Source of the DNA: an uncultured Planctomycetota bacterium
GTDB taxonomy: Bacteria; Planctomycetota; Planctomycetia; Gemmatales; Gemmataceae
Direction: 5' to 3'
Assembly (NCBI GenBank): GCA_963849325.1
Contig: CAWKHF010000006.1
Coordinates: 160,001 to 224,000, forward strand
Length of the DNA: 64,000 nt
In this document: positions 10,385 through 60,994 of the stretch, in pieces
Layout: every line of letters starts with the position of its first letter
How positions within the stretch are numbered: position 1 is the first letter of the stretch
Notes under the pieces: model-generated
The model's database searches: none
The model's input: the letters and a program-made list of their open reading frames with translations, nothing else
What the model was told of the DNA's origin: nothing
Program-made: the position numbers and the translations under genes

Positions 10385-10398
10385 TTCAAGGATGAAGG

Positions 10399-11393
10399 AT
10401 GAAGATCGGCATCACTTACGACCTGAAAGCCGACGTCCCCGCCGGCGCCGACCTGCCCGACGACTTCCAGGAAGAGTTCGACAGCCCCGCCACCATCGAG
10501 GCCATCGCCGCGGTGCTGCGCGGCCTGGGACACGAGGTCGAAGCGCTCGGCGACGGCCGGGAGCTGCTCGAACGTCTGCTGCGCGATCCGCCGGACTTCG
10601 TGTTCAACTTCGCCGAGGGCCACGGCATCGGCCGCTGCCGCGAGGCGCGGGTGCCGGCCGTGCTGGAGATGCTCGGCATCCCCTACACCGGCTCCGACCC
10701 GCTCACCCTGGCCGTCACGCTCGACAAGGATTGCGCCAAGCGGCTGGTGCAGTCGGCCGGCGTCCCCGTGCCGCGTTGGACGGTGCTCGAACCGGACCAC
10801 GACCCGACCGCTCTGCCGCGGCTGCCGTACACCGCCATCGTCAAGCCGGCCTGGGAAGGTTCCAGCAAGGGCATCCGCGGCAAGTGCGTCGTCGATCGCG
10901 TGGACGAGCTGGTCGAGGCGGTGACGACCCTGCGCCGCGATCATCGCCAGCCGATCCTCGTCGAGGAGTACATCGCCGGCGAGGAGCTGACCGTCGGCAT
11001 CGTCGGCAACGATCCGCCGCGCATCATCGGCGTCCTGCGCGTGGTGCCGCAGCGGCCGACGAGCGTTTCGTCTACAGCCTGGAGGTCAAGCGCGACTGGC
11101 GAAGACAGGTCCGCTACGAGTGTTTGTCCGGCGGCAGGAGTCCGAGGCGGTGGCGGAGGCCGCTCTGCGGGCGTACCGGACCCTGGGCTGCCGCGACGTG
11201 GCGCGCATCGACTTCCGCCTGCACCAACGGCATGCCGTACTTCCTCGAAGTCAATCCGCTGCCGGGCCTCAACCCGGAGTCGAGCGACCTGGTCATCCTG
11301 TCGCGGCTGGCGGGCTGGAGCTACGAACGACTGATCGAGAGCATCTTGCGCAGGCCGTGGAGCGGACCCAACGCCTCCGAGCCTGAAGCGTAA
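10399..11393 (+). CDS. D-Ala-D-Ala ligase-like ATP-grasp protein 1 (apparent frameshifts)
   Basis: FNFAEG, GIPYTGSD, IVKPAWEGSSKGI, GCRDVARIDFR and FLEVNPLPGL motifs. Confidence 0.9.
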
Positions 11394-17630: not shown

Positions 17631-18647
17631 ATGCGTCGTCTTCTCTTCCGCGTCGCCGGGCTGTGCCTGGCCCCGCTGACCGGGTTGGCCCTGGTCCACG
17701 CCTCCGAGCTGGACGGCAAACCCGCCGTCCGGCCTGTCAAACCCGCCACGCCTGCCACGGTATTCGTCCCGGACAAGGAGCTGACCTGCGGCTCGCACGG
17801 CACGCGCGTCGAGTTCGTCGCCACGCCCAGCAAGGCCGCGGCCATCGCCAAGAAAGAGCAGAAGCTCGTCTTCGTGCTGCACGTCTCCGGCAACTTTGAA
17901 GACCCGCGCTTCACCTGAAACAACGCCGAGGCGCTCCGTGTGAACGCCCTGGCCAATGCCGAAGTCGGCAAGTACCTCAACGAATACTTCGTCTCCTCCT
18001 TCCAGAAGGTCGCCACCTTCCGCATCGTCGGCGGTCAGAAACAGGGCGGCAACGTCGCCAGCTACTTCTGCGCTCCCGATGGCCGCGTCCTGCACGTCGT
18101 CGCCGGGCCGGTCAACGCCGACACCCTGCTGCGCGAAGCGAAGTGGGTCGTCGAGACCACCAAGAAGGCGATGGACGACGCCAAGGGCGACGGCCTGAAG
18201 TTCAAGGCGTTCTTCCGCAAGGCCCATGCCGAGCGCCTCAAGGACGAGCACGGCCTGACCGTCGAGCCGGTCACGTTCGATCCGCCGGCCGATGCGGACG
18301 AGAATGGCGCCTTGACCTACCGCGACCCGAGCGGCCGGCCGCTGGCGCCGAAGCTGCCGCCGCCGCCGATCGATGGGCCGGACGTTACCATTCGGCCGGC
18401 GCTGGCGCTGCAAAAAGCCGAGGCCAAGATGGCCGGCGCGCGTGCTCTGCTCGATCGCCGGGGCCGTCGCTGGGTGCTCGGCAACCAGGGCCGCGTTCAC
18501 GTGCTTCTGGCCGCCCACGCCATGAACAAGATCGAGACGATCTACGCCACCATCTTCGAGGGCATCCTCGGCGAGAAGATCTCGACCAGGCCCGTCGAGG
18601 TCGTCACGCCCTTCCCGTGGCTCAACCACCGCGGTAAGGGCGGGTAA
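17631..18647 (+). CDS. Putative exported thioredoxin-like selenoprotein (in-frame TGA at 17916-17918)
   Basis: ORFs 17631..17918 and 17940..18647 share a frame and are separated only by TGA plus 7 sense codons; signal peptide; hairpin just 3' of the TGA. Confidence 0.75.
17925..17953 (+). promoter_or_regulatory. Candidate bacterial SECIS stem-loop
   Basis: GCCG-A-GGCG-C-TC / loop CGTGT / GA-A-CGCC-C-TGGC; loop begins 19 nt after the UGA and has a G at its second position. Confidence 0.5.
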
Positions 18648-18666
18648 GGATCCGTCCCAGAATTCC

Positions 18667-18741
18667 TTCCTGTTTCGCCGCGACGCGCAGCGGAGCGCGG
18701 GAGACTCCCGCGCTCCGCTGCGCGTCGCGGCGAAACAGGAA
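18667..18741. repeat. REP-like palindrome (family B)
   Basis: ttcctgtttcgccgcgacgcgcagcggagcgcgggag and its reverse complement; core recurs at 32464. Confidence 0.9.
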
Positions 18742-18846
18742 GTCGCCGTTCGGCTTTCGTCTTGTCCCAAGCTCCCCCATCTGCTAGACCTTACGGCGTT
18801 ACGACGACGCCTCAATTCAACCAAGGGACGGAAGCGCGCAAGACGT

Positions 18847-19746
18847 ATGATCCCCATTGACCTGAGCGGGAAAACGGCCCTCGTCACCGGCGTGGGCGAC
18901 AACGAGAGCTTCGCCTGGTTCATCGCCAAGGCGCTGCAGGCGGCCGGCGCGCGCCTGGTGTTCGCCGTCCATCCGCGCATGATCCGCATCGTCGAGGGCT
19001 TCCTCAGCGGCGAAGCGCCCGACGACCTGGCCAGCCGTGCCCTGCCCTACGGCGGCGGCAGTCTGAAGGTCGAGAAGCTGCTGCCCTGCGACGTCGGCTA
19101 CGACACTCTCGCCGACGTGCCCGAGGCGACGCGCAACGACCGCCGATACAAGCGCGTCGAGGAGCAGCACGGCGATTACTCCATCGAAGGATTGATGAAG
19201 GCGGTCAAGGAATCGCACGGCGGCATCGACATGCTCGTCCACAGCGTCGCCTTTGCGCCGGAGATCAAGAGCAAGCTGATCGACACGACGCGAGCGGGCT
19301 ACTGGACGGCGATCAGCATCAGTGCTTACTCGCTGATCGGCCTGGTGCGGGCGGCGCTGCCGTTGATGGAGAATCGTCCGAGTGGAGCGTCGGTGGTGGG
19401 TCTGACGTACCTGGGCGGCGCACGGGTGGTGCCGCACTACGGCGGCGGCATGTCCACGGCCAAGGCGGCGCTGGAGATCGACGCCAAGCAGCTGGCCCAC
19501 AACGTCGGCGACAAGGGCATCCGCATCAATCTCATCTCGGCCGGACCCTACGCCTCGCGCACCGCCAAGGGCATCGGCGACATCCAGCAAATGATCGATT
19601 ACGCCGCCCAGCGTTCGCCGCTGCCGCGCGGCGTCACGCCGGAAGAGGTGGCCAACACCACCGTCTTCTTGTGCAGTCCGCTGGCCTCGGGCATCACCGG
19701 ACACGTCCTCTATGTCGATTGCGGCTACAACGTGATGGGCGTGTGA
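18847..19746 (+). CDS. fabI: Enoyl-ACP reductase
   Basis: GKTALVTGVG, LVHSVAFAP, LTYLG, YGGGMSTAKAALE and RINLISAGP motifs. Confidence 0.92.
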   Translation: MIPIDLSGKTALVTGVGDNESFAWFIAKALQAAGARLVFAVHPRMIRIVEGFLSGEAPDDLASRALPYGGGSLKVEKLLPCDVGYDTLADVPEATRNDRRYKRVEEQHGDYSIEGLMKAVKESHGGIDMLVHSVAFAPEIKSKLIDTTRAGYWTAISISAYSLIGLVRAALPLMENRPSGASVVGLTYLGGARVVPHYGGGMSTAKAALEIDAKQLAHNVGDKGIRINLISAGPYASRTAKGIGDIQQMIDYAAQRSPLPRGVTPEEVANTTVFLCSPLASGITGHVLYVDCGYNVMGV

Positions 19747-45917: not shown

Positions 45918-46050
45918 GTAGCCTAATCCCGCGCCGTCCGTGTGGGAACGGGGGAACCATGGGCCGGCCCGCGCCGGCCTTGGGGCTCAGGTTCGCGCCG
46001 CGAACCGGGGTACTTTCAAGCCCTGCCCGACAGCTAACCTCGTCGGCCGA
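45918..46050 (+). ncRNA. c-di-AMP (ydaO/yuaA) riboswitch
   Basis: Hallmarks AATCC, GGAACGGGGGAACC, TTGGGG and CCCGACAGCTAACCTCGTCGGC appear in the expected order, upstream of a KimA/YdaO-like transporter. Confidence 0.88.
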
Positions 46051-46151
46051 CCAGCGTCTCCCTGCTGGCCTCATTTGAAAGGGCACACCTGTCCCGGCGG
46101 TCCCGACGAAGAGCCCTCGTTTGTCCCGACCGCTCGCCGAGAACCATCCTC

Positions 46152-48833
46152 ATGACGACTCCTCCCCCCGGCGGTCCTTCGGACGGCCGAGCCGAGCCGC
46201 CCAACGCGGCCGGAACCTTCACGCGCCGTCTGCTGCGGCCAGCTCAGGTCATCATCGTCAGCAGCGTGATGTTCACCTTCATCAGCTACTGGCGCACCGC
46301 CGCCGTCGTCCTCTGCGACCTGGCCAGCACGTCCTACTACATCGGCGGCATCGTCGAGCAGTCCATCGGCTCGGCCGCCCCGTGGTTCATCCTCGGCGTC
46401 ATGTTCTTCAGCTACGCCGTCCGCTCGGTCTACATCGAGAGCTGCACCCTGTTCGTCCGCGGCGGCGTCTACCGCGTCGTCCGCGAAGCGCTGGGCAAGT
46501 TCATGGCCAAGCTCGCCGTGTCCGCCCTCATGTTCGACTACATCCTGACCGGGCCGATCAGCGCCGTCTCCGGCGGGCAGTACATCATCGGCCTGGTCCT
46601 CGAAATCGTGTCGCGCTGGTTCGGCATGACCATCGACCCCGACGCGCGCGACTTCGCCAAGCGGCTCGGCTCGGTCCTCATCGCCACCCTCGCCACCCTC
46701 TACTTCTTCCGCAAGAACATCATCGGCATCCACGAATCCAGCGAAAAAGCGCTGAAAATCATGATCATCACCACCGTCATGGGCGTGGTGATGCTGACGT
46801 GGTGCGGCGTGACGCTGGCCGTGCATGGCGCCGCCCACTCCAAGGACGGCACGCCCAACACCGTCAGCCCGACGCCGGACTTCCACTCCAAGCTCAACCC
46901 GACCACCAAGGAGATGGAAGACCCGACGGGGTTCTTGAAGCACACGAGGGCGGCGCAGGCGCTGCGCGACGTCAGCGGCAAACCCCCGACCGACTGGCTG
47001 GGCCTGATCGGCCTGTTCGGCATCTTCATCGCCTTCGGCCACTCGATCCTGGCCATGAGCGGCGAGGAGACGCTGGCCCAGGTTTACCGCGAAGTCGAGT
47101 CGCCGAAGCTGAAGAACTTCAAGAAGGCCGCCTTCATCGTCTTCCTCTACAGCCTGGTGTTGACCGGCGGCATCAGCTTCCTGGCCGTGCTGCTCATCCC
47201 CGCCGACGTGCGCATGCAGGACTACTCCGACAACCTCATCGGCGGCCTGGCGATGAACGTCATCGGCCCGTTGTGGGCGCAACTGCTGCTCAACGGCTTC
47301 GTGGTCGTGGTCGGCTTCGCTGATCCTGGCCGGCGCCGTCAACACGGCCATCATCGGCTCCAACGGCGTGCTCAACCGCGTCGCCGAGGACGGCGTCATG
47401 CCGGAGTGGTTCCTCAAGCCGCACCCGCGCTACGGCACGACCTACCGCATCCTCTGGCTCATCGTCGGCTTGCAGCTGTTCACCATCTGGGCCAGCTTCG
47501 GCGACGTGCTGCTGCTGGGCGAGGCTTACGCCTTCGGCGTCGTCTGGAGCTTCGTCTTCCAGGCGCTGTCGATGGTGGTGCTGCGCTTCGCCGATCCGAG
47601 GCCGCGCGAGGCCAAGGTGCCGCTCAACGTCCGCGTTGGCCGCTACGAGGTGCCGGTCGGCCTGATCGTCATCCTGATCATTCTCCTGGTGTCGGCGGTG
47701 TGCAACCTGCTGACCAAGGAGGTGGCCACCATCGGCGGCCTGATCTTCACGGCCATTTTCTTCACCCTGTTCCACGTCTCCGAGCGCTATCACGAGAAGC
47801 GCCGCCTCGGCAAACAGCACGAGCACATCGAGCAGTTCAACCAGGAGACGACCGGCGAGGTGACGGCCGGCAGTCTCGGCCTGACCAAGACGTATCGCAA
47901 GCTGGTGTCGATCCGCTCGCCGCACAACCTGTTCATGCTGGAAAAAGCGCTGGCCGAGACCGACCCGGAGACGACCAGCATCGTGGTCATGACGGCCAAG
48001 CTGATGCCGCTGGGCGGCTCCGAGGACGAGCAGCCCGACCTGGACGCCTACGATCAGCAGCTGATGACGGCCGTGGTGCAGCTGGCCGAGAAGGCCGGCA
48101 AGCAGGTCAAGCCGCTCATCGTGCCGACCAACAATCCGCATCCACGCCGTGCTCAAGACCGCCAAGGACTTGCAGGCCCACGAGCTGATCCTCGGCGCCT
48201 CCAACCGTTACACGGCCGACGAGCAGATGGAGCAGATCGCCTTTTACTGGATCAACCTGCACGGCGGCAACCCGGCGCCGCTGACGGTGCGCATCCTCAG
48301 CCGCGAGCGCGACATCTACCTCGACCTGGCCGGCGGCAATCGCATTCCCAAGATCAGCGAGCGCAAGGCGCGGTCGGTGGCCGAGCTGCGCGCCGCCGGC
48401 GTCGGCGTCGATCGCGTGCTGCTCATCCACGACGGCAGCCCGGCCAACAGCGACCTGTTCCAGGGCGTCTTGACCATGCTCGACGCCGCAGGTGGTGCTG
48501 GGCGTCGTGCCGGTGGTGCCGCCCGGCTCGGAGCCGCTCAACGGCCACGGCGTCGTCCATCAGGACGAGGAACGCGCCCGCCAGCTCGGCCGCGAACTGC
48601 AGGTGATCGAGCTGCCGGTGCCCGACGGCCCGGCCATCGTCGAGCGCGCCAGCAAGGACCAGTACGATCTCGTCATCCTGCCGCTGTCCGACGAGGCGCC
48701 GAACAATCCCCTGGGCGCGCTCGACGCCCGCGCCAGCTACATCCTCCGACACGCCCACTGCCGGGTGTTCCTGGCGGCCCACCCGGTCATCCCGCAGGAA
48801 GTCGTCGATAAAACGCCCAGCCGCGCTCCGTAG
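46152..48833 (+). CDS. APC family (KimA/YdaO-like) transporter with C-terminal USP-like domains (apparent frameshifts)
   Basis: DLASTSYY, RGGVYRVV, ALMFDYILT, AMSGEE and YAFGV motifs; long cytoplasmic tail ending HAHCRVFL. Confidence 0.85.
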
Positions 48834-49378: not shown

Positions 49379-51474
49379 ATGCGAATGCGGCGATGGTCCT
49401 TGGTTGTCCTCAGCGCGGCGCTCTTGGGCGTCGCCTCGCTGCGGGCCGCGGAGACGGCGGCGCCGGCGCCGGAGCAAAAGCGACAGGCCGAGGCGCGGAT
49501 GCGCCGCGACCTCACCTTCCTGGCCTCCGACGAATGCGAGGGTCGCGGACCGGGCACCAAGGGCATCGACAAGGCCGCCGACTACATCGCCGCCGAGTTC
49601 AAAAGGGCCGGACTCCAGCCCGGCGGCGAGGACGGCAGCTATTTCCAGCCGTTCACCCTCAACGCCAACGTCCTCGACAAGCCGGCCCACCTCACGCTCA
49701 AGGGGCCACAAGGACAGGAGATCGAACTGCGGCAGGGCGTCCACTTCTGGCCGATGGGCCTGGGCGGAAGCGGCGGCGACCGAGGGCCGGCCGTCTTCGC
49801 CGGCTACGGCATCACCAGCACCAAGGCGAACTACGACGATTACGAAGGGATCGATGTCGCCGACAAAATCGTCGTCCTGCTGCGCGAGCGCCGAGTTCGG
49901 CCGACAAGGACCGGGCCCGCGAGCTGATGAACGGCGCCCCGTTCACTCGCAAGATCGCCAACGCCGAGAAGCATCATGCGGCGGGCGTCCTGATCGTCAA
50001 CGACGCCGACGCCGCCCACGACGGCGACGATCTGCTCGACTTCAACTACACCGCCTTCGGCCGCAGCACGGCCAAGGTCCCGGTTTGCCACGTCCGTCGC
50101 CGTGTGCTGGAGAGGATGCTGCCCGGCGGCGCCGACGCGCTGACGGCCGTGGAGAAGGACATCAACCGCGAACGGAAGCCGCACAGCCGAGAGCTGACCG
50201 GCTGGACGATCGGCGTGGACGTGCGTTTGCATCGCGGCAAGATCGACGTCAAGAACGTGGTCGGCGTCCTCGACGGCTCCGGGCCGCTGGCCGATGAAAC
50301 GATCGTGGTCGGCGCCCATTACGATCATCTCGGCTACGGCGGCGTCAGCAGCCTGGCCGGCCTGAAGAAAATGGCCATCCACCACGGCGCCGACGACAAC
50401 GCCTCCGGCACGACGACGATGCTGGAGCTGGCCCGTCGCTTCGCGGCCCTGCCCAAGCGGCAAGGACGGCGTCTGGTGTTTCTCGCCTTCAGCGGAGAGG
50501 AATTAGGGCTGTTCGGCTCGGCCTATTACTGCAAGCATCCGCTGTATCCGCTCAAGGACACGGCCGCCATGTTCAACCTCGACATGGTTGGCCGGCTGCG
50601 GACGGACAAGGTCAGCGGCAAACCCAAGGTGCTCACCGAGGGCAGCGGCACCGCCAAGCCCTTCCGCGAACTGCTCGACGACCTGGCCCGCAAGTACGAC
50701 TTCAAAATGGTCAACAAGCCGAGCGGCATGGGACCGAGCGATCACGCCTCGTTCTGCGGCCAGGACGTGCCGGTGCTGTTCTTGTGGACCGATTACCACG
50801 ACGATTATCACCGCCCCAGCGATACGGCGGACAAGATCAACATCGCGGGCATGCGGCGCATCGCCGATTTGAGCCAGGATGCCATCGCCACGCTGACGCA
50901 CATGGATCGGCCGGCGTACATCAAGGTCAAGACCGCATCGGCCCGGCCCTCCAATGGACCGCGCCTGGGCATCATGCCCGGCGACGGCGGCGGCAAGGGC
51001 GTCCGCATCGAGGAGGCGGTCGCCGACGAGCCGGCCGCCAAGGCCGGATTGAAGAAGGACGACCTCATCGTCTCCCTCGCCGGCAAGCCGGTGCGCAGCC
51101 TGCAAGACCTGCTGGCCATCCTCAAGAATCAGAAGGCCGGCGACACCATCGAGGTCGGCATCGTCCGCGATGACCGGCCGATGACGGTCTCGGTGAAGCT
51201 GGAAAGCCCCTACGCCAACATGCCGCGCCTGGGCATTCGTCCGAGCTACAGCGACGAGGGCGAGGGCGTGCTGCTGGAGGGCGTGACCGACGATCTGCCG
51301 GCCGCCCGAGCGGGACTGAAGAAGGAGGACCGGATCGTGCGCATCGCCGGCAAGCCGGTCAAGGATCTCGAAGACTACATGGAGATCCTGGGCGGCCAGA
51401 AGAAGGGCAGCACAATCGAGGTCGGTATTATCCGCGATGGGAAGACGATGACGGTGCGGGTGAAGTTGGAATAA
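49379..51474 (+). CDS. M28 peptidase with PA domain and two PDZ domains (apparent frameshift near 49890)
   Basis: LASDECEGRGPG, GAHYDHLG, GADDNASG, FSGEELGL, SDHASF and two RLGI-P PDZ repeats. Confidence 0.92.
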
Positions 51475-51563: not shown

Positions 51564-52444
51564 TTACTTGCCCTGTCCGAACCAGCGTCCCATCAATCCC
51601 TCTTTGCGGGAGGGGATGGCGGGCGTTGGGGCCGGCGCGGCCTGCCCGCCTCCGGGAGCGGCGCCGCGGCGTGTGCTGACGTCTCTGCAGCTTGTCCTTG
51701 AGGTCTGCGAGCCGAACCGAGGAGACGGCGCCATTGTTGCGTTCCAGACGCTCCAGATCGCGGCTGACCTCGTTGCGCAGCCGCTGCAAGTCGTTGCGTT
51801 GCCGGGCCATCTCGGCGCGTTCGCGGGCCATGCTGATCTCCATCTCGCGCATCTGATCCATGACCGCCTGCTCGTCCTCCTGCAGCTGTCGGCGTTCGCG
51901 TTCCAGCTCCTCGCTGAGGGCCAGCAGCTCTTCCTCGCACGGGGCGACGCCCTGGTGCGGCGCGGCGCGGCCGCCTGCGGGCCGGCGGCCTCGGCCTGTT
52001 CGAGAGCGGTCTGCATCTCTTGCAGCTGCGTGATGCAGCTGACGGATCAATTCGTTTTTCTCTTCCAGGACCGCGTTGTATTCGCGGATCTGCTGTTCGA
52101 GGTCGGGCTGAAGCTGCTGGGCGGCCTCCTGCAAGGCCTGCTCCAGTTCGGCACAGAGGGTGGCGCAGCTGGGCATTCTCCAGACGCAGCTCTTGCATGG
52201 GGTCCACCTCCGCCATGCCGTCGGCCCGGTCGCGTCGGGCATCGGCGCGGACGGCGGCGTCCTCGGCCAACCGTTCCGGTTCCTCGAAAGACCCCTGGGC
52301 GTCGTCCCCGGCGGCGTGTAAATGCAACGGGCCGGCCGCGGCTGGTCGGCCGGGGAGACCGCCGTTGGGTCCGCCACGGTGCGGCTCCGGGAGGGGGAGA
52401 GGTCTGACCATGTGCCCTGTTCTCCGCTCGGGTTCGGCTGCCAT
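51564..52444 (-). CDS. Coiled-coil hypothetical protein (apparent frameshifts)
   Basis: EEELLALSEELERERRQLQEDE...MARERAEMARQR heptads spread over several frames; C-terminus KEGLMGRWFGQGK. Confidence 0.7.
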
Positions 52445-52585
52445 CGCGGCCGTCCTCGTCCCGGCCGCGTCGGGACCACGGGCGCGGTCCCGCGCAACTA
52501 TAGCTCGCAAATCGCTGCCCGGGCGCCGATTCCTGCGCCGCCACTGCCATCGAACCGTCACTTTGATTACATCTTCGTCAACTTC

Positions 52586-52614
52586 TTGACTCCGCTTTCA
52601 TCTTTCCTCATACT
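52586..52614 (+). promoter_or_regulatory. Sigma70 promoter of Gly/Met gene 1
   Basis: TTGACT-17-CATACT. Confidence 0.7.
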
Positions 52615-52888
52615 TACCAATGGTGCCTCGCACCCCGCCCGCGCGTGGCCCCCACGCTACACCAAACCAGCCCCCCGGCGGCCCCCGGGCATCGCCCATC
52701 AGGCCCGTTGTCCAACCGAGAACACGCGGACTCCGCTCCGCTGTCAAGCCCTTGTCACTCCATCCGGCCGCTCCGCGGACGTCGCCAAGCTGCCGGTCGC
52801 TGTTTCGTTCCGCGCCTTGAGCGTTGCGAGCGCGGCCATCGAGGCGCCGCCGCTCGCCAACCCGGTTTCCTCCTTCTCCGAGGGTCGC

Positions 52889-53394
52889 ATGCATTCCACT
52901 CGTTCGTTGAAAGTCGCTTACGTCGTGGCACTGGGGTCTCTGGTCCTCCTGCTGTCGAAGCCCCGTCCCGTCGAGGCCCAGCGCGCGGGTCGCGCCCATG
53001 CTCCAAACCGTCGATCGCATGATGATGCCGTCCATGATGAACGCTGCGCATGATGCTCATGGGAGGCAGCATGGGCGGCATGATGGGCATGATGGGCGGC
53101 ATGATGGGCATGCGTGGCGGCATGATGGGCATGCGTGGCGGCATGATGGGCGGCATGATGGGCGGCATGATGGGCGGCATGATGGGCGGCATGGGCATGC
53201 GCGGCGGCATGATGGGCGGCATGGGCATGCGCGGCGGCATGATGGGCGGCATGGGCATGCGCGGCGGCATGATGGGCATGGGCGGCATGGGCGGCATGAT
53301 GGGTGGCATGATGATGGGCGGCATGGGCATGGGCGGCATGATGGGCTTCGCCGGCAAAGGCATGGGCGGCTTTAACGGTCGCAAAGCTCTCTAA
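52889..53394 (+). CDS. Secreted Gly/Met-rich protein, copy 1 (two apparent frameshifts near 52990 and 53045)
   Basis: MHSTRSLKVAYVVALGSLVLLLSKPRPVEA|QR...APMLQTV...(GGMM)n...GFAGKGMGGFNGRKAL. Confidence 0.8.
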
Positions 53395-53541
53395 AACGTC
53401 GCGCCATCCTTGAGGATTCTGCTCCTCAAGCCGCTTGCGACTCGGCGGTGCAGCGTCCCACGCGAAGCCGCAAGCGGTCTCCGGGGCGAGGGTGCGCCTC
53501 TCACACTTTCGTTAATAATTCTTAAGGTTGCTGTCTCCTTC

Positions 53542-53570
53542 TTGACAGTGCTTTCCCACTTTTTCATACT
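53542..53570 (+). promoter_or_regulatory. Sigma70 promoter of Gly/Met gene 2
   Basis: TTGACA-17-CATACT. Confidence 0.75.
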
Positions 53571-53656
53571 TGCATTGTAGCTTGACTCGTTAACCGCATC
53601 GAGCGGCGACAGGCTGTCGTCTCCATGCTCTCCTTCTTCCTCTTCCGAGGGTCGTC

Positions 53657-54169
53657 ATGTTCTCCTGTACCCGCCTGCTGAAAGTCGTCTACCTCGTGGC
53701 TCTGGGGGCCGTGGTGCTCCTGCTGTCCCAACCCAAGCCCGCGCACGCGCAGCGCTCCCGCGTCGCGCCGATGCAACAGCAGGTCAATCAGATGATGATG
53801 CCCTCCATGATGCAGGCGCGCATGATGCTCCAGATGGGCGGCATGGGCGGCATGGGGATGATGGGCATGGGCGGAATGATGAGCATGGGCGGCGGCATGA
53901 TGGGCATGCGGGGCGGCATGATGGGCATGAGCGGCGGCATGATGGGCATGATGGGTGGCATGATGGGCGGCATGGGCATGCGTGGCGGCATGATGGGCGG
54001 CATGTCCATGATGGGCGGCATGTCCATGGGTCGAGGCGGCATGATGGGCATGGGCGGCATGGGCGGCATGATGGGCGGCATGATGATGGGCGGCATGGGC
54101 ATGGGCGGCGGCATGATGGGCTTCGCCGGCAAGGGCATGGGCGGATTCAACGGCAAGAAGGCCCTCTGA
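53657..54169 (+). CDS. Secreted Gly/Met-rich protein, copy 2
   Basis: Intact 170-aa ORF; signal peptide ending PAHA|QRS; tail GFAGKGMGGFNGKKAL. Confidence 0.88.
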   Translation: MFSCTRLLKVVYLVALGAVVLLLSQPKPAHAQRSRVAPMQQQVNQMMMPSMMQARMMLQMGGMGGMGMMGMGGMMSMGGGMMGMRGGMMGMSGGMMGMMGGMMGGMGMRGGMMGGMSMMGGMSMGRGGMMGMGGMGGMMGGMMMGGMGMGGGMMGFAGKGMGGFNGKKAL

Positions 54170-54196
54170 GCGCTCGCCTCTTTTTCGCGAACTCCC

Positions 54197-54232
54197 AACC
54201 GCGCCGGCGTTCCTCCGCCGGCGCGGTTTTTC
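54197..54232 (+). terminator. Intrinsic terminator after Gly/Met gene 2
   Basis: aaccgcgccggcg-ttcctc-cgccggcgcggtt followed by a T run. Confidence 0.75.
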
Positions 54233-54300
54233 GTTTGGCTCTCTCTTCGCGTCGCCGGATGGCGCGTCTCCTGCTCGCCCCGTTTCGGCCCACCAAGTCC

Positions 54301-54329
54301 TTGACTAAACCTTTCCTTTTCTTCATACT
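54301..54329 (+). promoter_or_regulatory. Sigma70 promoter of Gly/Met gene 3
   Basis: TTGACT-17-CATACT. Confidence 0.75.
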
Positions 54330-54433
54330 GGAGCGAAGGCGTAAGCGCTTCCGCTGGCGCCACGGAGTGTACCTCGAGGATGCCTCCGTGCGGGAGGCGT
54401 CGAAGCTCCCTTCCTCGATTTGTGGAGAGCGCC

Positions 54434-54979
54434 ATGAGTGGCTCCATTCGTTGGTTTCAGGTTGCCTATGTGCTGGGTCTATCCGCCGTCGTCCTGTTGC
54501 TGTCGCAGCCTCGTCCGGCCACGGCGCAGCGATCCATGGTCGCGCCGATGCAACAGCAGGTCAATCAGATGATGATGCCCTCCTTCCAGCAAGCTCAGAT
54601 GATGCTCCAGATGGGCGGCATGGGTGGCATGGGCATGATGGGCATGGGCGGCATGATGAGCATGGGCGGCGGCATGATGGGCATGGGCATGGGCGGCATG
54701 TCCATGATGGGCGGCATGAGCATGGGCGGCGGCATGATGGGCATGCGCGGCGGCATGTCCATGATGGGCGGCATGGGCATGGGCGGCATGTCCATGATGG
54801 GCGGCATGATGATGGGCGGCATGGGCATGGGTGGCGGCATGATGGGCATGCGCGGCATGTCCATGATGGGCGGCATGTCCATGATGGGCATGAGCGGCAT
54901 GGGCATGGGCATGGGCGGCGGCATGATGGGCTTCGCCGGCAAGGGCATGGGCGGATTCAACGGCAAGAAAGCCCTCTGA
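54434..54979 (+). CDS. Secreted Gly/Met-rich protein, copy 3
   Basis: GGAGAG RBS; MSGSIRWFQVAYVLGLSAVVLLLSQPRPATA|QRS; same tail. Confidence 0.88.
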   Translation: MSGSIRWFQVAYVLGLSAVVLLLSQPRPATAQRSMVAPMQQQVNQMMMPSFQQAQMMLQMGGMGGMGMMGMGGMMSMGGGMMGMGMGGMSMMGGMSMGGGMMGMRGGMSMMGGMGMGGMSMMGGMMMGGMGMGGGMMGMRGMSMMGGMSMMGMSGMGMGMGGGMMGFAGKGMGGFNGKKAL

Positions 54980-55108
54980 ATTGTCCGCCATTTCCTCTCG
55001 TTCGCGCACGCGCCGGCCTCTTCGCCGGCGCGATCTCTTTTCCTCCTCGCCGGCTCGCCGTCGTTTTCGCCGCCGTCATAAATTTCCAGAATTACGCGAT
55101 CTTTCTTC

Positions 55109-55136
55109 TTGACGTATCCTTTCTTTTCGTTAAGAT
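55109..55136 (+). promoter_or_regulatory. Sigma70 promoter of Gly/Met gene 4
   Basis: TTGACG-16-TAAGAT. Confidence 0.65.
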
Positions 55137-55483
55137 TGGTGGAAAGGAGGGAACGGCCTGGCGAGCGTCGGGCCGAACATTCTCTCGGCACCTTGACGAA
55201 AGGACTCACCCCAACCATCATCCCGAAACCTCTTCGTTGTGGTTGCCTCTCGGGTTTCCCGACCCGGCCATCCTGGCCCTTCCGTGACAACTGCCTGTCA
55301 TCCCGCTGGCCGAAAGAAACAAGGCCACGGAAAGTTTGACCTGAAACGGTGTTGCTCCTCGACCACGCCCCGGGCGGATGGTGTTCCTCCGCGGCGCGGC
55401 CATCAACGCGGATGGCGTGCGACGTATCGCGCGGGTCGCCAATGCGTTTGACGTCGAAGGCCCTTTTCTTCCTGGAGATCTTC

Positions 55484-55984
55484 ATGCTTGACTCCGTTCG
55501 TTGTCTGCGTGTTAGCTACGTCCTGATGTTGGCGACGGCCGTCCTTGTGCTGTCGCGGCCGGGAGACTCTCGCGGCCAACGGTCGCAGATCGCGCCCATG
55601 CTGCAAACCGTCAATGGCCAGATGTCGCAGTCCATGTCGCAAACCCGCATGATGCTCATGGCAGGCGGCTCGTCCCTGTCGGCGGGCATGGGCGGCGGCG
55701 GCATGAGCGGCGGCATGGGCATGAGTGGCGGCATGAGCGGCGGCATGGGCATGAGCGGCGGCATGATGGGCGGCATGGGCATGAGCGGCGGCATGATGGG
55801 CATGAGCAGCATGGGCATGGGCGGCATGAGCGGCATGGGCATGGGCGGCATGGGCGGCATGATGGGCATGAGCAGCATGGGCCGAGGCGGCATGGGCATG
55901 GGCGGCGGCATGGGCATGGGCGGCGGCATGATGGGCTTCGCCGGCAAGGGCATGGGCGGTTTCAACGGCCGGAAAGCTCTCTGA
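55484..55984 (+). CDS. Secreted Gly/Met-rich protein, copy 4
   Basis: GGAG RBS; MLDSVRCLRVSYVLMLATAVLVLSRPGDSRG|QRS; same tail. Confidence 0.88.
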   Translation: MLDSVRCLRVSYVLMLATAVLVLSRPGDSRGQRSQIAPMLQTVNGQMSQSMSQTRMMLMAGGSSLSAGMGGGGMSGGMGMSGGMSGGMGMSGGMMGGMGMSGGMMGMSSMGMGGMSGMGMGGMGGMMGMSSMGRGGMGMGGGMGMGGGMMGFAGKGMGGFNGRKAL

Positions 55985-56119
55985 GCCGGCCCACGATTTC
56001 CGCTTTTTCCTCGGACGCGCCGGCCCTTGTTCGCCGGCGCGATCTCCTTTTCTTCCCCGCTCCCGTCCGGCGCCTTTCGCCGGTCGCCGTCCCTTTCCAG
56101 AATTACGCGATCTTTTTTC

Positions 56120-56147
56120 TTGACATGTCGTTCCCTTCCGGTAACAT
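56120..56147 (+). promoter_or_regulatory. Sigma70 promoter of Gly/Met gene 5
   Basis: TTGACA-16-TAACAT. Confidence 0.65.
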
Positions 56148-56437
56148 CAATGCAGACGAGGAACCGGCTTGGCGAGCGTCGCCGAGTCGTTCTCTCGGCA
56201 CCTTGACGAAAGAACGCAACGCGACTGTCATCCCGAGACCTCTCTGTTTGGTTTTCCGGCTGGTTTTCTCGATCTGGCTCCTCTCGCTCCTCCACGACAA
56301 CGACCTGTTTTCCCGCCGAGCGAAATAAGCAGGGCGAACCGCGCGGTCCCTCCCGGTTGGTGCCGCGCGGCGGATCGCGGCGGTCCCGGAATGCGTTCGA
56401 ACGTCGAAACGCCCTTCCTTCTCTTCATGGGGATTTC

Positions 56438-56916
56438 ATGCTTGGTTCCGTCCGTTGTCTGCGCCTTGGCTACACCCTGATGTTGGTGGCGACCGTCCTC
56501 CTGCTGTCGCGGCCGGGAACGTCCCGGGCCAGCGCTCCCGGATCGCGCCCATGCTCCAGCAGGTCACGCAGCAATTCTGGCAACCGCAAGTCATGCAAAC
56601 GCGCATGATGCTCATGAGGGGCGGCATGAGCGGCGGCATGAGCGGCGGCATGAGCGGCGGCATGATGGGCGGCATGATGGGCGGCGGCATGATGGGCCGC
56701 GGCGGCATGATGGGCGGCATGATGGGCGGCGGCATGATGGGCATGAGCAGCATGGGCCGCGGCGGCATGATGGGCGGCATGGGTCGCGGCGGCATGGGCA
56801 TGGGCGGCATGGGCGGCATGATGGGCGGCGGCATGGGTGGCGGCATGGGCATGGGCGGCATGATGGGCTTCGCCGGCAAGGGCATGGGCGGATTCAACGG
56901 CAAGAAAGCCCTCTGA
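56438..56916 (+). CDS. Secreted Gly/Met-rich protein, copy 5 (apparent frameshift near 56520)
   Basis: MLGSVRCLRLGYTLMLVATVLLLSRPG / GQRSRIAPMLQQV...GFAGKGMGGFNGKKAL. Confidence 0.82.
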
Positions 56917-56928
56917 GCCGCCCGCGTA

Positions 56929-56980
56929 GCCGCTGGCGGCTTAGCGTTCGCCGTTGCCCGCTAAGCCGCCAGCGGTTTTT
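56929..56980 (+). terminator. Hairpin / terminator after the Gly/Met array
   Basis: ccgctggcggcttagcg...cgctaagccgccagcgg followed by T5. Confidence 0.7.
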
Positions 56981-57058
56981 GGCCTCGCCTTGACACTCCG
57001 CGAGCGTTGTGCGACCTTCTTCGGCCGGCCTGTCGTCCGAGCCAAGGAGGGCCATGCC

Positions 57059-59618
57059 ATGGACGGTCGATCCGCTTCGGCGTCTGCCCCGCCTCCGTTT
57101 TCCGCACTCCTCTCCGCTGAATTTTCCTCTTCCTCTTTGCCGGCGCCGAAACGTCGTCGCTGGCATTTGTCGCTGGTCTTGCCGGCCTACAACGAGGAAG
57201 CCGGCATCCGTCAGGCCGTCGCCGAGGCGTGCGACGGCGCTGGCGGAGCTGACCGCCGACTACGAAATCCTGGTCGTGGACGACGGCAGCCGCGACGACA
57301 CCGCCGCCATCGTGGCCGAGATGGCGGCGACGCGGCCGCGCCTGCGGCTGCTGCGTCACGTGTCCAATCGCGGTTACGGCGCCGCCCTGCGTACCGGCTT
57401 CGCCGCGGCGCGCTTCGAGCGCGTGGCCTTCACCGACGCCGACTGTCAGTTTCACCTCGCCGACCTCGGCCGTCTGCTGTCGTTGTCCGAGCGTTTTCCG
57501 CTGGTGGTTGGCTGGCGGCAGGCGCGGCAGGATCCGTGGCGGCGCCGCTTTCTGTCGCGCGGCTACAACCTGCTGACACGGACCTTGCTGGGCACGCGCG
57601 TGCGCGACTGCGACTGCGCCCTGAAGGTGTTTCACCGCGACGTGCTCGCCGCACTGCTGCCGGAGACGAACACGTTTTTCGTCAACGCCGAGATGCTGGC
57701 CAAGGCACGTCAGCTGGGCCTGGACGTGGCCGAGGTCGGCGTGCGTCATCGGCCGCGCCTGCGCGGAGCGAGCAAGGTGTCGTTGGGCGAGGTGCCGCGT
57801 ACGCTGGCGACGCTGGTGCCGTTCTGGTGGTCGCGGGTGCTGTTCGCGGGGGATGAGCGATTTCTCCCCTCTCCCCCGCTTCGGGGGAGAGGGGTAGGGG
57901 GTGAGGGGGCAGCGTCTCCCCCTCACCCCCTACCCCTCTCCCCCGAAGCGGGGGAGAGGGGAGAAAGAAGACGGAGCGGACGCTCGCTGGCACTTCTCGT
58001 GCTCCTCGCCGCGACCCTGTTCTTTCTCCGTCTGCGCGCCCCGCTGCTGGAACCGCAGGAGCCGCGCTACGCCGAGATCCCCCGGCAGATGTTGCAAGAG
58101 GGACGTTTGCTGGTGCCGGTGCTGCACGGCCAGCCGTACCTCGACAAGCCGCCGCTGCTGTACTGGCTGGTGATGGGTAGTTACGGCCTGTTCGGCGTCC
58201 ACGACTGGTCGGCCCGCCTGGTGCCGGGCCTGGCCGGCGTCCTGACGGTGCTGCTGACCTACGGCTGGGGCCGCCGCGCCGTCGGCGAGCGCGCCGGATT
58301 GTGCGGGGCGCTGGTGCTGTGTCTGTCGGCCGGCTTCGTTTATCGCCAGCGCATGCTCAACATGGACAGCCTGCTGTGCCTGTGGGTGACGGCCGCCCTG
58401 GCGTCGGCCCACCGGGCGCTGACGACCGGGCCGCTCCTGCGGCGGCGCTGGGGGCTGACGGCGGCCGTCGCCTGCGGCCTGGGACTGCTGACCAAGGGTC
58501 CGGTGGCCCTCGTCCTGATCGGGACGCCGCTGCTGCTCTATCGGTGTCTGGAGCCGCGTTGCGCCCGCGTGTCCTTCCGCGCCGCGGCCCTGTTCGTGCT
58601 GCTGGCCGTGGCCGTGGCGGCGCCGTGGTACGTCGCCGTTATGGTGCGGGAGCCGGACTTCGCGTATTCCTTCTTCTGGCGACACCACGTCGAACGGTTC
58701 CTGACACCGTTCGACCACGAGAAGCCGGCCTGGTTTTACCTGCCCGGCCTGCTGGCCGGTATGCTGCCGTGGACGCTGCTGTTGCCGGGGTTTGTACGTT
58801 ATCTTGCCCGGCGTTCGCCGCGCGCCGCTCGGCGTCGTCCGGCCGCGCTCGGATTCTTTCTGCTGTCGGCCCTGTGGTGTGTGCTGTTCTTCTCGGCCTC
58901 CGGCTGTAAGCGACCCGCGTACATTCTGCCGGCGATGCCGCCGCTGGCGCTGGCGCTGGGCTGCTACCTGAACGTCCTGGTTCCGCATGGCCGCCGTCTG
59001 TCCGGCGCCGGCTTGCTGCTGTTGTGGCGCTGGCGCTCGGCGGCGGCGTCGGCGGGCGACGATGCTCGTGCTGGTGCTGGCCCTGGGGATCGTCGCCGCT
59101 GGCCGGCCGGCAAGCAGATGTCTGCGTCCTGGCTCTGGCCTTCGTGCTGGAGGTCGCTGGCCGCTTGCGGCTTGGCGCTAGGCTGTACGCGGCGCATCTC
59201 GTGGGGCGTCTGCGCCGCCGTCACCTTCGTCGTGCTCGGTCTGGGGGTCTACCACTTGCAGCCCGCCTACAATCGCCAGTTCGCGCTGCGCGGCCACCTG
59301 CGCGGCGACACCGACCTCGCCGACGGGACGCGCCTGCCGGTCGTTTGCTATCCGCAGCGCTGGGATTCGGTCAGCTTCTACCTGCCCCGCGCCGACGTGC
59401 GCGTGTACACGCTGGAGCAGCGGCGGCAGATGCTGGCGGACCTGCGCTCGCGGCCGCGGACGCTGTTGCTGGTGAAGTCCGGCAAGGTACTCGATGATCT
59501 GCTGCGCGAGTTGTCCGACTCGATCGAGTTCGTGGCGCACGGCCGGCCGGGAGTCGTCACCGCCGGCTGGGTGCGTCCACGCCGCGAACCGTCCGAGGCC
59601 GCCTACGCACGGCGCTGA
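57059..59618 (+). CDS. GT2 glycosyltransferase fused to ArnT/GT39-like membrane glycosyltransferase (apparent frameshifts)
   Basis: LSLVLPAYNEE, VVDDGSRD, NRGYG, TDADCQ; then EPRYAEIPRQM, YLDKPPLLYW, LTKGPV and KRPAYILP motifs. Confidence 0.88.
57861..57966. repeat. Perfect 49-bp inverted repeat (8-nt spacer) inside the glycosyltransferase ORF
   Basis: tttctcccctctcccccgcttcgggggagaggggtagggggtgaggggg and its exact reverse complement; read as LPSPPLRGRGVGGEG...PHPLPLSPEAGERGE. Confidence 0.92.
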
Positions 59619-59631
59619 CACCGCGTCGCCT

Positions 59632-59705
59632 TCCGAGCCTGAAGCGTAAGCGAAGAGACGACAACTTTTGCATGCCGATCCCTTCGCTTACGCTTCAGGC
59701 TCGGA
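59632..59705. repeat. REP-like palindrome (family A)
   Basis: tccgagcctgaagcgtaagcgaag...cttcgcttacgcttcaggctcgga. Confidence 0.9.
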
Positions 59706-59790
59706 CAAACCCTACTCGCCAAGTCGCAAGCGGCTTGCGATAATGGCCCTGCCCACGGACATCCCCTCATCCCCACCGGAGATCCGCACC

Positions 59791-60994
59791 ATGACTCTTC
59801 CGCACCGTCGCGCCGTCCTCGCCGGCGGACTGGCCGGCCTAGCTTGCTCCGCACTGTCCGGCGCCGAGCCGCGCGCCGCCAAGGACGCCCTCAAGATCAC
59901 CAAGCTGGAAACCTTCCTCGTCAAACCGCGCTGGCTGTTCCTCAAAATCCACACCAACGCCGGCATCACCGGCCTGGGCGAGCCCATCCTCGAAGGCCGC
60001 GCCCGCACCGTCGCCGAGGCCGTCAAGGAGATCGAGCCGTACCTGATCGGCAAGGATCCGCGCAGGTCGTCCACCACTGGCAGGCTATCTATCGCCACGC
60101 TTTCTATCGCGGCGGGCCCATCCTCACCAGCGCCCTGAGCGGCATCGACATCGCCCTGTGGGACATCAAGGGCAAGGCGCTGGGCGTGCCGGTCTACGAG
60201 TTGCTCGGCGGACCCACCCGGCAGCGCGTGCGCGTTTACGCCCATGCTCGCATCTCCCGAGAAGCTGAAGGAGCTGAAGGACAAGGGCTTCACCGCCTTC
60301 AAGACCGGCCCGGCCAAGCGACGGCCGGCGCGCTACGTCGAGACGCCGGCCGAGGTGCGCCACGTCGCCGAGCGCGTTCGCCGAGCTGCGCAAGGCCGGC
60401 GGCGACGACGTGGACATCGCCATCGACTTCCACGGAGCCATCAGTCCCGCCACGGCCAAGCTGCTCATCAAGGCGCTGGAGCCATATCAACCCATGTTCA
60501 TCGAGGAGCCGTGCCAGGCGCAGAACCACGACATCATGGCCGAGATCGCGCGCGGCACGCACCTGCCCATCGCCACCGGCGAGCGCGTCTTCACCAAATG
60601 GGGCTTCCGCGAAGTGCTGGAGAAGAAGGCGGCGACGATCTTGCAGCCGGACCTGTGCCACGCCGGCGGCATCACGGAATGTCGTCTCATCGCCGGCATG
60701 GCCGAGGCGTATTACGCCGCCATCGCGCCGCACTGTCCGCTCGGTCCCATCGCCCTGGCCGCCGGCGTGCAGCTGGCCGCGTCCATTCCCAACTTCGTCG
60801 CCCAGGAACAGGTCACGCTCGGCGACGGCTATCTCAAACGGCCGTTCGCGCTGCGCCAGGGCTATCTCGATCTGCCGACGGGACCGGGGCTGGGCATCGA
60901 GCTGGACGAGCACGCCCTGGCCGACAAGATCGATCACGATTGGAAGAACCGCGAGGAGTACGACGCCGACGATGGTTCCGTGGTCGATTGGTGA
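59791..60994 (+). CDS. dgoD: Galactonate dehydratase-like enolase-superfamily enzyme (apparent frameshifts)
   Basis: [58 protein letters not shown] and DDGSVVDW motifs. Confidence 0.85.

Follow-up and report, generated by a model that had tools for sequence, protein, structure and literature searches.

Abductin, the elastomer of the bivalve hinge ligament, has a repeat motif of the type GGFGGMGGGx, and the FG-type domains of FG-nucleoporins are cohesive sequences of the 'sticker-spacer' kind. SilE and PcoE, which sit in sil and pco clusters, are small, exported, disordered and Met-rich proteins carrying Met/His motifs, and thioether-only binding of Cu(I) by motifs of the MxM/MxxM type is established chemistry. 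The methionine-rich periplasmic peptide MrpX of Azospira suillum is described as 20% Met, with charged residues making up a further 44%, and as encoded in a yedYZ-mrpX operon under SigF (PMC4436054). The Gly/Met-rich tails of GroEL are described as abductin-like and as populating PPII conformations, and MD simulations in the same account suggest that they contact hydrophobic patches of the client protein (PMC12571646); Met-rich regions are reported to mark insoluble, cross-linked matrix proteins of molluscs (PMC7591529). Here we describe a family from Gemmataceae that shares features with each of these systems.

The five-gene array

The window (the whole stretch of 64,000 nucleotides that was analysed) contains five co-oriented paralogs, a feature that is far beyond chance, laid out as follows:

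52586..52614, + strand, promoter-like site of copy 1, TTGACT-17-CATACT
52889..53394, + strand, copy 1, reading frame interrupted twice in the assembly (2 nt lost near 52984, 1 nt gained near 53045)
53542..53570, + strand, promoter-like site of copy 2, TTGACA-17-CATACT, 10/12
53657..54169, + strand, copy 2, intact ORF of 170 aa
54197..54228, + strand, terminator-like hairpin 3' of copy 2, 13 pairs plus T-run
54301..54329, + strand, promoter-like site of copy 3
54434..54979, + strand, copy 3, intact ORF of 181 aa
55009..55032, + strand, terminator-like hairpin 3' of copy 3
55109..55136, + strand, promoter-like site of copy 4, with a second site at 55193-55221
55484..55984, + strand, copy 4, intact ORF of 166 aa
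56016..56041, + strand, terminator-like hairpin 3' of copy 4
56120..56147, + strand, promoter-like site of copy 5, TTGACA-16-TAACAT
56438..56916, + strand, copy 5, reading frame interrupted once (1 nt lost from the G-run at 56526-56528)
56958..56975, + strand, terminator-like hairpin 3' of copy 5
57009..59618, + strand, GT2 + PMT/PMT_2 fusion glycosyltransferase of 869 aa, downstream of the array

The initial annotation had read this region as five tandem paralogs, and its coordinates, signal peptides, mature start, Gly/Met bodies and tail all stand; however, the ORF is uninterrupted only in copies 2, 3 and 4, the breaks in copies 1 and 5 having been silently read through. Copy 1 spreads over three frames, one for the signal peptide, one for the N-module and one for the body plus tail. 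Pfam domains are truncated, or divided between frames, in at least six other conserved genes of the window, and because this damage to neighbouring housekeeping genes is of the same kind, the breaks in copies 1 and 5 are probably assembly indels. Ten members of the family are encoded in this genome, five of which are frame-broken in the assembly (two in the window and three on contig C1); if the breaks were genuine, part of the family would be decaying here. Promoter-like sites precede all five copies, with seven sites found against 0.9 expected in shuffles. Only 15 sites of the type TTGACN-N16-18-CATA[CA]T exist across the 8.16-Mb genome, 5 of them in front of family genes. Hairpin/T-run sites lie directly 3' of copies 2-5. 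The glycosyltransferase gene is a positional neighbour of the array that is conserved within the genus, and a functional link between the two is only putative.

Architecture, tail and distribution of the family

All members follow a common plan, with a signal peptide ending in A/G followed by Q, an N-module of about 30 residues, a body of variable, low-complexity sequence (about 50-170 residues) and a C-terminal motif of 17 residues, in proteins of 130-200 aa. In the five copies the signal peptides end in VEA, AHA, ATA or SRG, followed by QR, and the mature start reads QR(S/A)x(V/I)APM(L/Q)Q.V. The Sec-type anatomy proposed in the initial annotation holds by inspection: a basic n-region (R6/K9) and a hydrophobic core come before a P at -6, position -3 is A/S/V and position -1 is A/G. 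This agrees with the pattern for export by Sec and cleavage by SPase I, which consists of a basic n-region, an h-region of 12-15 residues and small residues at -3 and -1. The Gln after the predicted cleavage site is invariant in the 21 aligned members (21/21), and the proteins probably carry a Sec-type signal peptide that is cut before this residue. The bodies of the five copies span 81-104 residues, of which G+M make up 82-94% (G 45-54%, M 33-45%), as in the 93-aa body of copy 1 (G+M 94%), and Met accounts for 23-32% of the precursor in the three intact copies; the body of copy 4 is richer in Ser (G 49%, M 33%, S 15%). An AF2 model of copy 2 shows a signal-peptide helix at residues 4-23 and weak helices at 39-62. 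In the body pLDDT stays under 50, from which this part is predicted to be intrinsically disordered, low model confidence being no proof of disorder.

Mean pairwise identity among the five copies is 49% in the signal peptide and 54% in the N-module, and rises to 92% over the last 22 residues. Over the final 17 residues, GFAGKGMGGFNG(R/K)KAL-stop, the five copies agree in everything but the R/K alternation, and the consensus across the family is GGFAGKG(M/F/L)GGFNGxxxL-stop. Among 41 distinct DNA versions of the tail, a set that was itself selected by a tail pattern, most fixed residues are encoded by 2-4 synonymous codons, although the Ala at position 3 is always GCC. Because the residues are kept while the codons vary, the tail is, as read from these sequences, under selection at the protein level, as the initial annotation had suggested. 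When proteins were chosen solely by their N-terminus, 33 of 52 had the tail; of the remaining 19, most break off within the repeat body or run into text of a shifted frame, which is what truncation or frame-shifting of the records would produce. No NCBIfam match was obtained to the known C-terminal sorting signals PEP-CTERM, GlyGly-CTERM, LPXTG and T9SS CTD, and the tail does not have their form: such signals consist of a motif followed by a membrane-spanning helix and a basic tail, or of a CTD of about 80 aa, whereas the protein here ends 4-5 residues past GGFNG without a hydrophobic helix. As the initial annotation proposed, the tail may nevertheless serve in sorting, processing or polymerisation, and the invariant Gln may cyclise to pyroglutamate.

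The initial annotation recognised no family in these proteins, and indeed no Pfam, NCBIfam or PDB entry matches them (0 Pfam/NCBIfam families at E ≤ 1), all 27 database relatives being 'hypothetical' or unnamed. Searches of 1.84 billion proteins yielded 79 matching cluster representatives (E ≤ 1e-3). The family recurs in other genomes: it is present in all 10 same-genus genomes (10/10) and, by inspection, in three other genera of Gemmataceae (G097, G068 and G137), but in 0/400 other Planctomycetota genomes searched. These searches point to an undescribed and unannotated family found only in Gemmataceae. In 71 complete mature members Gly averages 35% (range 19-45) and M+F+L+I+V likewise 35% (range 26-46). 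Acidic residues number only 42 of 9235, with none at all in 38/71 members, and K+R number 391 (about 4%), so that charged residues total about 5% and the body has a small net positive charge. The body is described by the absence of Cys, with 3 Cys in the same 9235 mature residues, and His occurs 0-2 times per protein. The hydrophobic partner of Gly is Met in this genus and Phe, Leu or Ile in paralogs and relatives; two paralogs of the same genome, both intact and carried on another contig, keep the ends but have bodies rich in G/F/N in one case and in G/L/F in the other. As Met swings from 0 to 40% among the 71 members, with Gly and total hydrophobics constant, these sequences indicate that Met chemistry is not the conserved feature of the family.

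A putative envelope material and its alternatives

Based on these observations we tentatively propose, at a little under an even chance, that these proteins make up an envelope material of cationic, disordered Gly/hydrophobic chains that cohere with one another and have conserved ends as handles. Of the roles suggested in the initial annotation, the matrix or condensate-like one fits best. The chains, which we infer to be abundant, intrinsically disordered and self-cohesive, would be exported and cleaved and would build up a soft material, elastic or gel-like, that is located in the periplasm, within the envelope or extracellularly. Gly would provide the 'spacers' and the hydrophobic residues the weak 'stickers' between them, and the two conserved ends would serve as handles for assembly, anchoring or cross-linking. 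The Met-rich version of this genus might additionally buffer oxidants or bind Cu(I). A look for co-occurring enzymes or transporters had also been suggested there; the glycosyltransferase adjoins the array within the genus, but no partner gene conserved across the family was found.

The same annotation had also offered Met-centred functions (Cu/Ag binding, an oxidant sink or a sulfur store), and these are weakened as the core role by the variation in Met content, by the G/F- and G/L-rich paralogs and by the lack of msrPQ or copper genes nearby. A sacrificial periplasmic oxidant sink, in which exposed Met would be oxidised by HOCl/ROS and then restored through a periplasmic methionine sulfoxide reductase, has a precedent in MrpX with YedY/MsrP (PMC4436054), and the predicted export, the Met content of precursors and bodies, and the six Oxidored_molyb-domain proteins and one MsrA encoded in the genome would all suit it. 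We nevertheless consider it unlikely, as none of the six Oxidored_molyb (PF00174) genes, which lie on contigs C2, C10, C4, C5 and C12 (at 21 kb), adjoins the arrays on C6, C1 or C12 (447 kb); the neighbours here are unrelated, whereas MrpX is described as part of an operon with yedYZ, and charged residues are about 5% against its reported 44% (PMC4436054). Moreover, many members, including the two same-genome paralogs, have 0-2% Met with the same ends. This replacement of Met by Phe or Leu also speaks against a periplasmic Cu(I)/Ag(I) sponge, with thioether-only MxM/MxxM sites binding soft metal ions in the manner of SilE/PcoE or the Mets motifs of Ctr1. MGM, MMGM and MxxM patterns are dense in the bodies, but His is nearly absent, NCBIfam gives no match, and no cop, cus, pco or sil gene was detected among the window ORFs scanned against Pfam or in a scan of the neighbour clusters that recur at related loci, which makes the sponge slightly less likely still than the sink. 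For the Met-rich branch a redox-sink or Cu(I)-sponge role is possible, though with no genomic support; as Met is costly, its 33-45% share of the body may signal selected Met-specific chemistry in this genus.

The composition also agrees with the C-terminal Gly/Met segments of GroEL, and by analogy with its GGM tails the chains might form an extracytoplasmic chaperone-like 'hydrophobic brush' holding unfolded or hydrophobic clients. This appears improbable, given the absence of any link to folding machinery and an organisation in tandem, multi-copy genes with conserved ends that suggests bulk material rather than a catalyst. Slightly less weight again goes to a glycine-rich factor that the cells would secrete to inhibit or outcompete their neighbours, such as an antimicrobial; a cationic, acid-free, Gly/hydrophobic composition and a multi-copy, diversifying family would accord with it, but there are no immunity, export or processing genes nearby, the signal is of the Sec type and not a double-glycine leader, and the size is 130-200 aa. 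The least probable explanation, to which we assign very little weight, is that the genes are non-functional, being decaying repeats or lying opposite Pro/Met/Ile-rich antisense ORFs that are the true products. It could draw on the three frame breaks in two of the five window copies, on those in three members on C1 and on the length of the antisense ORFs (209-296 aa). Against it, conserved neighbouring genes are also broken, intact ORFs of the family (orthologs and paralogs) recur in assemblies of related genomes, synonymous codons vary beneath the fixed tail, and the signal peptides, promoters and terminators all lie on the + strand, which GC3 likewise favours (0.87-0.93 against 0.78-0.81 on the antisense).

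Returning to the envelope material, a bolder form of the proposal, which we regard as unlikely, is that this sticker-and-spacer family condenses into a cohesive hydrogel or elastomer in the unusually large periplasm of Gemmataceae or at envelope pores. Bacteria would then have, outside the cytoplasm, an equivalent of FG-nucleoporin barriers or abductin rubber. The invariant N-module and the Lys/Phe tail would provide cross-linking or anchoring points, and paralogs of differing stickiness would set the properties of the material. Proteins with bodies of 33-45% Met are almost unheard of. Here they occur in multiple copies within one family whose ends are conserved, whose promoters are strong and consensus-like, and in which sister proteins carry Phe or Leu in place of Met. 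This exchange is a natural experiment implying that what is selected is Gly plus a flexible hydrophobic residue and no acid, and not sulfur chemistry. If a cohesive phase or elastic layer does exist, it would be a rare case of a low-complexity structural material in bacteria, and it could also be relevant to the enlarged periplasm of Gemmataceae and to their envelope, which is atypical and poorly understood. The simple sequences also offer themselves for biomaterial or phase-separation studies.

Relationship to described systems

Like MrpX, a periplasmic protein with a signal peptide and unusually high Met (PMC4436054), the window proteins combine a predicted signal peptide with abundant Met (23-32%). 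They differ in having Gly at 30-46%, in a Met content that is not conserved family-wide and in the composition of Met plus charged residues, and no yedY/yedZ (msrP/msrQ) neighbourhood was found near the arrays. SilE and PcoE resemble them as small, exported, disordered and Met-rich proteins, but the family has almost no His, no metal-resistance genes among the scanned window ORFs and no match to the SilE/PcoE profiles of NCBIfam/Pfam (0 at E ≤ 1). The (GGM)n tails of GroEL and the G/M region of Sis1 are comparable as flexible, hydrophobic Gly/Met low-complexity segments (PMC12571646, PMC11978752); these are short cytoplasmic appendages of folded chaperones, whereas here the G/M tract would be the bulk of a separate exported protein.

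The likeness to abductin and silk is one of composition and architecture. With abductin the family shares a body of Gly plus Met/Phe and a predicted non-globular, extracellular state, and its tail GGFAGKGMGGFNG resembles the abductin-type repeat. On its own features it is set apart in being bacterial, in its size, in its conserved N-module and C-tail, and in an interchangeable hydrophobic partner (M, F, L, I). There is no homology to spidroins or FG-nucleoporins, the terminal modules, of about 30 and 17 residues, are very small, and the proteins would be exported by Sec; from sequence alone, however, the G/F-rich paralogs with their GFNGFG repeats resemble the cohesive FG-type domains, and conserved terminal modules around a fast-evolving Gly-rich repeat core recall a spidroin-type design.

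Architecture and reading frames of the window copies

The genes described here belong to a real, undescribed family that is restricted to one lineage; its cationic Gly/hydrophobic proteins are conserved at both ends and predicted to be exported and disordered. The five paralogs reported in the initial annotation (copies 1 to 5) are present, co-oriented on the + strand, at its start positions, 52889, 53657, 54434, 55484 and 56438, and all of them carry a signal-peptide-like segment at the N-terminus followed by the mature start QR(S/A)x(V/I)APM(L/Q)Q.V. The claimed near-invariant tail was likewise recovered, the last 17 residues reading GFAGKGMGGFNG(R/K)KAL before the stop in 5/5 copies; mean pairwise identity is 49% in the signal peptide, 54% in the N-module and 92% over the last 22 residues. 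Gly plus Met indeed make up 82-94% of the body (G 45-54%, M 33-45%), which is 81-104 residues long. The count of five genes needs a qualification: copies 2, 3 and 4 are open throughout (170, 181 and 166 aa), but copies 1 and 5 are frame-broken. Relative to its paralogs copy 1 is spread over three frames, with 2 nt missing near 52984 and 1 nt extra near 53045, and copy 5 occupies two frames, with 1 nt missing within the G-run 56526-56528.

Split or partial Pfam domains, comparable to the breaks in copies 1 and 5, also occur in ordinary conserved genes of the window:

Window genes with split or truncated Pfam domains (Pfam scan)
6798-7769
8705-10122
10396-11331
18526-19743
46038-48603
59643-60991

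For example, one amino-acid permease has Pfam positions 1-285 and 281-423 in different frames, the enolase-superfamily gene lies in three frames, and the ORF scan recovered only partial domains for a second permease and for lysine-2,3-aminomutase-like, D-Ala-D-Ala-ligase-like and short-chain dehydrogenase genes. The assembly itself comprises 14 contigs and 8.16 Mb with an estimated completeness of 84.7%; within the genus completeness is 74-85% in few-contig genomes versus mostly 91-97% in many-contig ones, and the lower values fit indel-rich long-read assemblies. Furthermore, one family copy on another contig of the same genome (C1) shows at least 5 frame changes in about 600 nt with a perfect tail, which would be unexpected in an old pseudogene and favors assembly error for this copy. 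Based on the broken neighboring genes, the completeness pattern and this perfect tail, we consider that the frame breaks probably reflect assembly error, with genuine decay as the less probable account; the window copies, with 3 breaks over about 2.6 kb, are however more densely broken than the neighboring genes. A sequencing-run search found small shares (0.05-0.06) matched in soil metagenome contigs and listed no RNA runs with the array. In the four runs compared coverage was essentially of the repeat bodies, with the frame-break sites outside what could be judged, and two short contigs from one run extended into the copy 1 and copy 5 leaders. The assembly appears rich in indel errors, and reading frames called from it should be treated with caution.

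Distribution and conserved ends of the family

Scans of the copies against Pfam and NCBIfam returned 0 families, in keeping with the earlier failure to recognize one. In the PDB a profile search picked up nothing beyond weak, low-complexity similarity to phage phi92 gp138 (E 0.023-0.13), which was discarded, and we did not find a description of such a family in the literature on Planctomycetes and Gemmata/Gemmataceae. The genome encodes 10 members, namely the five in the window, three on contig C1, all frame-broken, and two intact tandem genes on contig C12:

Family members outside the window
C1, ~74428-76100 and 566465-567140, - strand: G/M-rich members of a second subfamily
C12, ~446938-447630, + strand: paralog 1, intact, G/F/N-rich body (GFNGFG repeats)
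C12, ~447770-448450, + strand: paralog 2, intact, G/L/F-rich body

The mature start of the second subfamily reads QFRG.MPP.P.MP...N.M(T/S)D(K/S)(A/T)GGF.

With copy 2 as query 9/10 same-genus genomes were matched, and a profile of 21 aligned sequences (A1) matched 8/8 of those sampled, including, through a contig-end fragment, the one missed by copy 2. Both searches combined thus recovered the family in 10/10 same-genus genomes, bearing out its conservation beyond this genome, and in many-contig assemblies the ORFs are intact over their full length and often lie 3-4 in tandem. Related loci come from MAGs recorded as 'Gemmataceae bacterium' or 'Planctomycetota bacterium'. In a family-level sample the profile matched 13/200 other Gemmataceae genomes; inspection identified true members in three further genera (genomes G097, G068 and G137), with a candidate match in G014. 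The match in G062 (locus L044, G062:C30) was rejected as a family member, as its Gly/Met tract is internal to a protein with a 1564-aa frame. This very large, exported-looking protein, for which the locus shows a frame of at least 1134 aa, has an internal pure Gly/Met tract of about 130 residues. No match at E<=1e-6 was obtained in 400 genomes of other Planctomycetota. Of 1.84 billion cluster representatives only 79 matched at E<=1e-3, a number that falls to 34 at E<=1e-10, and a collection of 5.8 billion proteins yielded 27 matches, all labeled 'hypothetical protein' or unnamed and lacking a Pfam domain.

The signal peptide conforms to the consensus M.S..R.LKVGY.L.L...V.LLS.P....A/G, with M1, Y12, L23 and P26 invariant in the 21 aligned sequences. 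An invariant Q, part of QR or, in the second subfamily, of QFR, directly follows it; next is an N-module of about 30 residues, and the family-wide C-terminal motif is GGFAGKG(M/F/L)GGFNGxx(A/P/G)(L/F/I)-stop. Across 41 distinct DNA versions of the tail 2-4 alternative codons are in use for most fixed residues, with the Ala at position 3 always GCC. This codon variety under a fixed tail implies conservation at the protein level rather than recent gene conversion, and upholds the selection on the tail proposed earlier, although the invariance of this set is partly circular, as its versions were picked by the tail pattern. When representatives were picked by the N-terminal motif alone the tail was present in 33/52; most of the remaining 19 stop within the repeats of the body or end in sequence read from a shifted frame, resembling truncated or frame-shifted records. 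Structure prediction with AF2 and the A1 alignment (mean pLDDT 53, pTM 0.19) produced a confident helix at 4-23, corresponding to the signal peptide. Helices at 39-46 and 48-62 were modeled with low confidence, and the body and tail were left unstructured (pLDDT <50). A complex prediction of the N-module with the tail scored 0.00 and gave no answer, and is counted neither for nor against an interaction.

Expression signals and gene neighborhoods

A scan detected a sigma-70-like site upstream of all five copies, 87-347 nt from their starts, with 7 sites observed versus 0.9 ± 0.8 in shuffles. Hairpin/T-run sites lie directly 3' of copies 2-5, terminator-like sites not being enriched by count (5 versus 3.7 expected). 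The rare promoter type TTGACN-N16-18-CATA[CA]T, found upstream of the first C12 paralog, has only 15 occurrences genome-wide when both strands are counted, with about 4 expected from base composition; 5 of these 15 sites are upstream of family genes, and a looser version precedes 26 of the 43 family genes at all loci. Long Pro/Met/Ile-rich ORFs on the antisense strand of the array were rejected as products, given the + strand signal peptides, promoters, terminators, conserved stops and higher GC3 (0.87-0.93 versus 0.78-0.81 on the antisense strand). Copies 4 and 5 have long leaders that resemble each other, measure about 290-350 nt and may be regulatory; each has a further promoter-like site, of the form TTGACG:

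Second promoter-like TTGACG sites
55193-55221: copy 4
~56200-56235: upstream of copy 5

An Rfam scan of 52000-57500 gave only a sub-threshold miRNA match, and hence no known leader RNA in this region.

The neighbors in the window encode a sulfatase, an M20 peptidase, a permease, an M28-PDZ-PDZ peptidase, a fusion glycosyltransferase (GT2-PMT), an enolase-type enzyme and a TPR protein:

Neighboring genes and elements
49393-51474, + strand: M28-PDZ-PDZ peptidase, 693 aa
57009-59618, + strand: GT2-PMT, 869 aa
57861-57966: inverted repeat within the GT2-PMT ORF

The sole recurrent neighbor is GT2-PMT, which immediately follows a family gene or array on its downstream side in the window and in four other same-genus genomes (G003, G004, G006 and G008), and also at related loci L029, L030 and L035, which are possibly from the same genomes. 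The adjacency represents conserved gene order, since further downstream genes are syntenic too and GT2-PMT is absent beside the other arrays and beside members from other genera. The GT2-PMT ORF contains a perfect inverted repeat (49 nt, 8-nt loop), in frame within the GT2/PMT interdomain linker and translated as ...PSPPLRGRGVGGEG..PLPLSPEAGERGE....; the 25 genomic occurrences of its 30-nt core point to a REP/MITE-like palindromic element able to sit inside coding sequence. The domain make-up of the M28-PDZ-PDZ peptidase, a Peptidase_M28 domain and two PDZ domains at the C-terminus, is unusual. This protein was rejected as a reader of the tail on synteny, there being no ortholog near family genes elsewhere, and an apparent recurrent neighbor cluster including it was due only to shared PDZ/trypsin domains.

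Body composition, possible roles and comparison with known proteins

In 71 distinct complete mature sequences Gly is near 35% (19-45%) and M+F+L+I+V near 35% (26-46%), with Met ranging from 0 to 40%. Acidic residues number 42 of 9235 and are entirely lacking in 38 of the 71 proteins, with totals of 391 K+R and 3 Cys. In the C12 paralogs one body is of the GFNGFG type (24% Phe, 1% Met) and the other of the G/L/F type, both between the same ends as in the window copies, and members from G137 have GQIGGF-type bodies. As Met varies so widely while Gly and hydrophobic residues remain steady, the sequences indicate that selection retains glycine plus a flexible hydrophobic residue in an acid-free, slightly basic context, and not methionine as such.

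We tentatively favor cohesive or elastic envelope material as the most likely role. Met-specific chemistry would be a secondary specialization of the genus: a redox role of this kind appears unlikely, and a metal-related one a little less likely still. The ORFs scanned in the window and in the neighborhoods of related loci include no copper genes, and the genome's six PF00174 (molybdoenzyme) loci and single msrA are far from the arrays. With regard to the pyroglutamate proposed at the N-terminal Gln, the genome, at 84.7% completeness, yielded no type-I glutaminyl cyclase (PF05096).

MrpX is described as an exported peptide, 20% of whose residues are Met and 44% charged, which is co-transcribed with yedYZ and oxidized by hypochlorite (PMC4436054). 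The present family differs from MrpX in both composition and operon context. The Gly/Met tails of GroEL are described as abductin-like and in part PPII (PMC12571646), and passages on Met-rich regions tie these to insoluble, cross-linked mollusc matrices and mention Met-Lys cross-links for collagen IV (PMC7591529). By analogy, the invariant Lys of the tail makes comparable Met-Lys cross-linking conceivable in the Met-rich branch of the family only.
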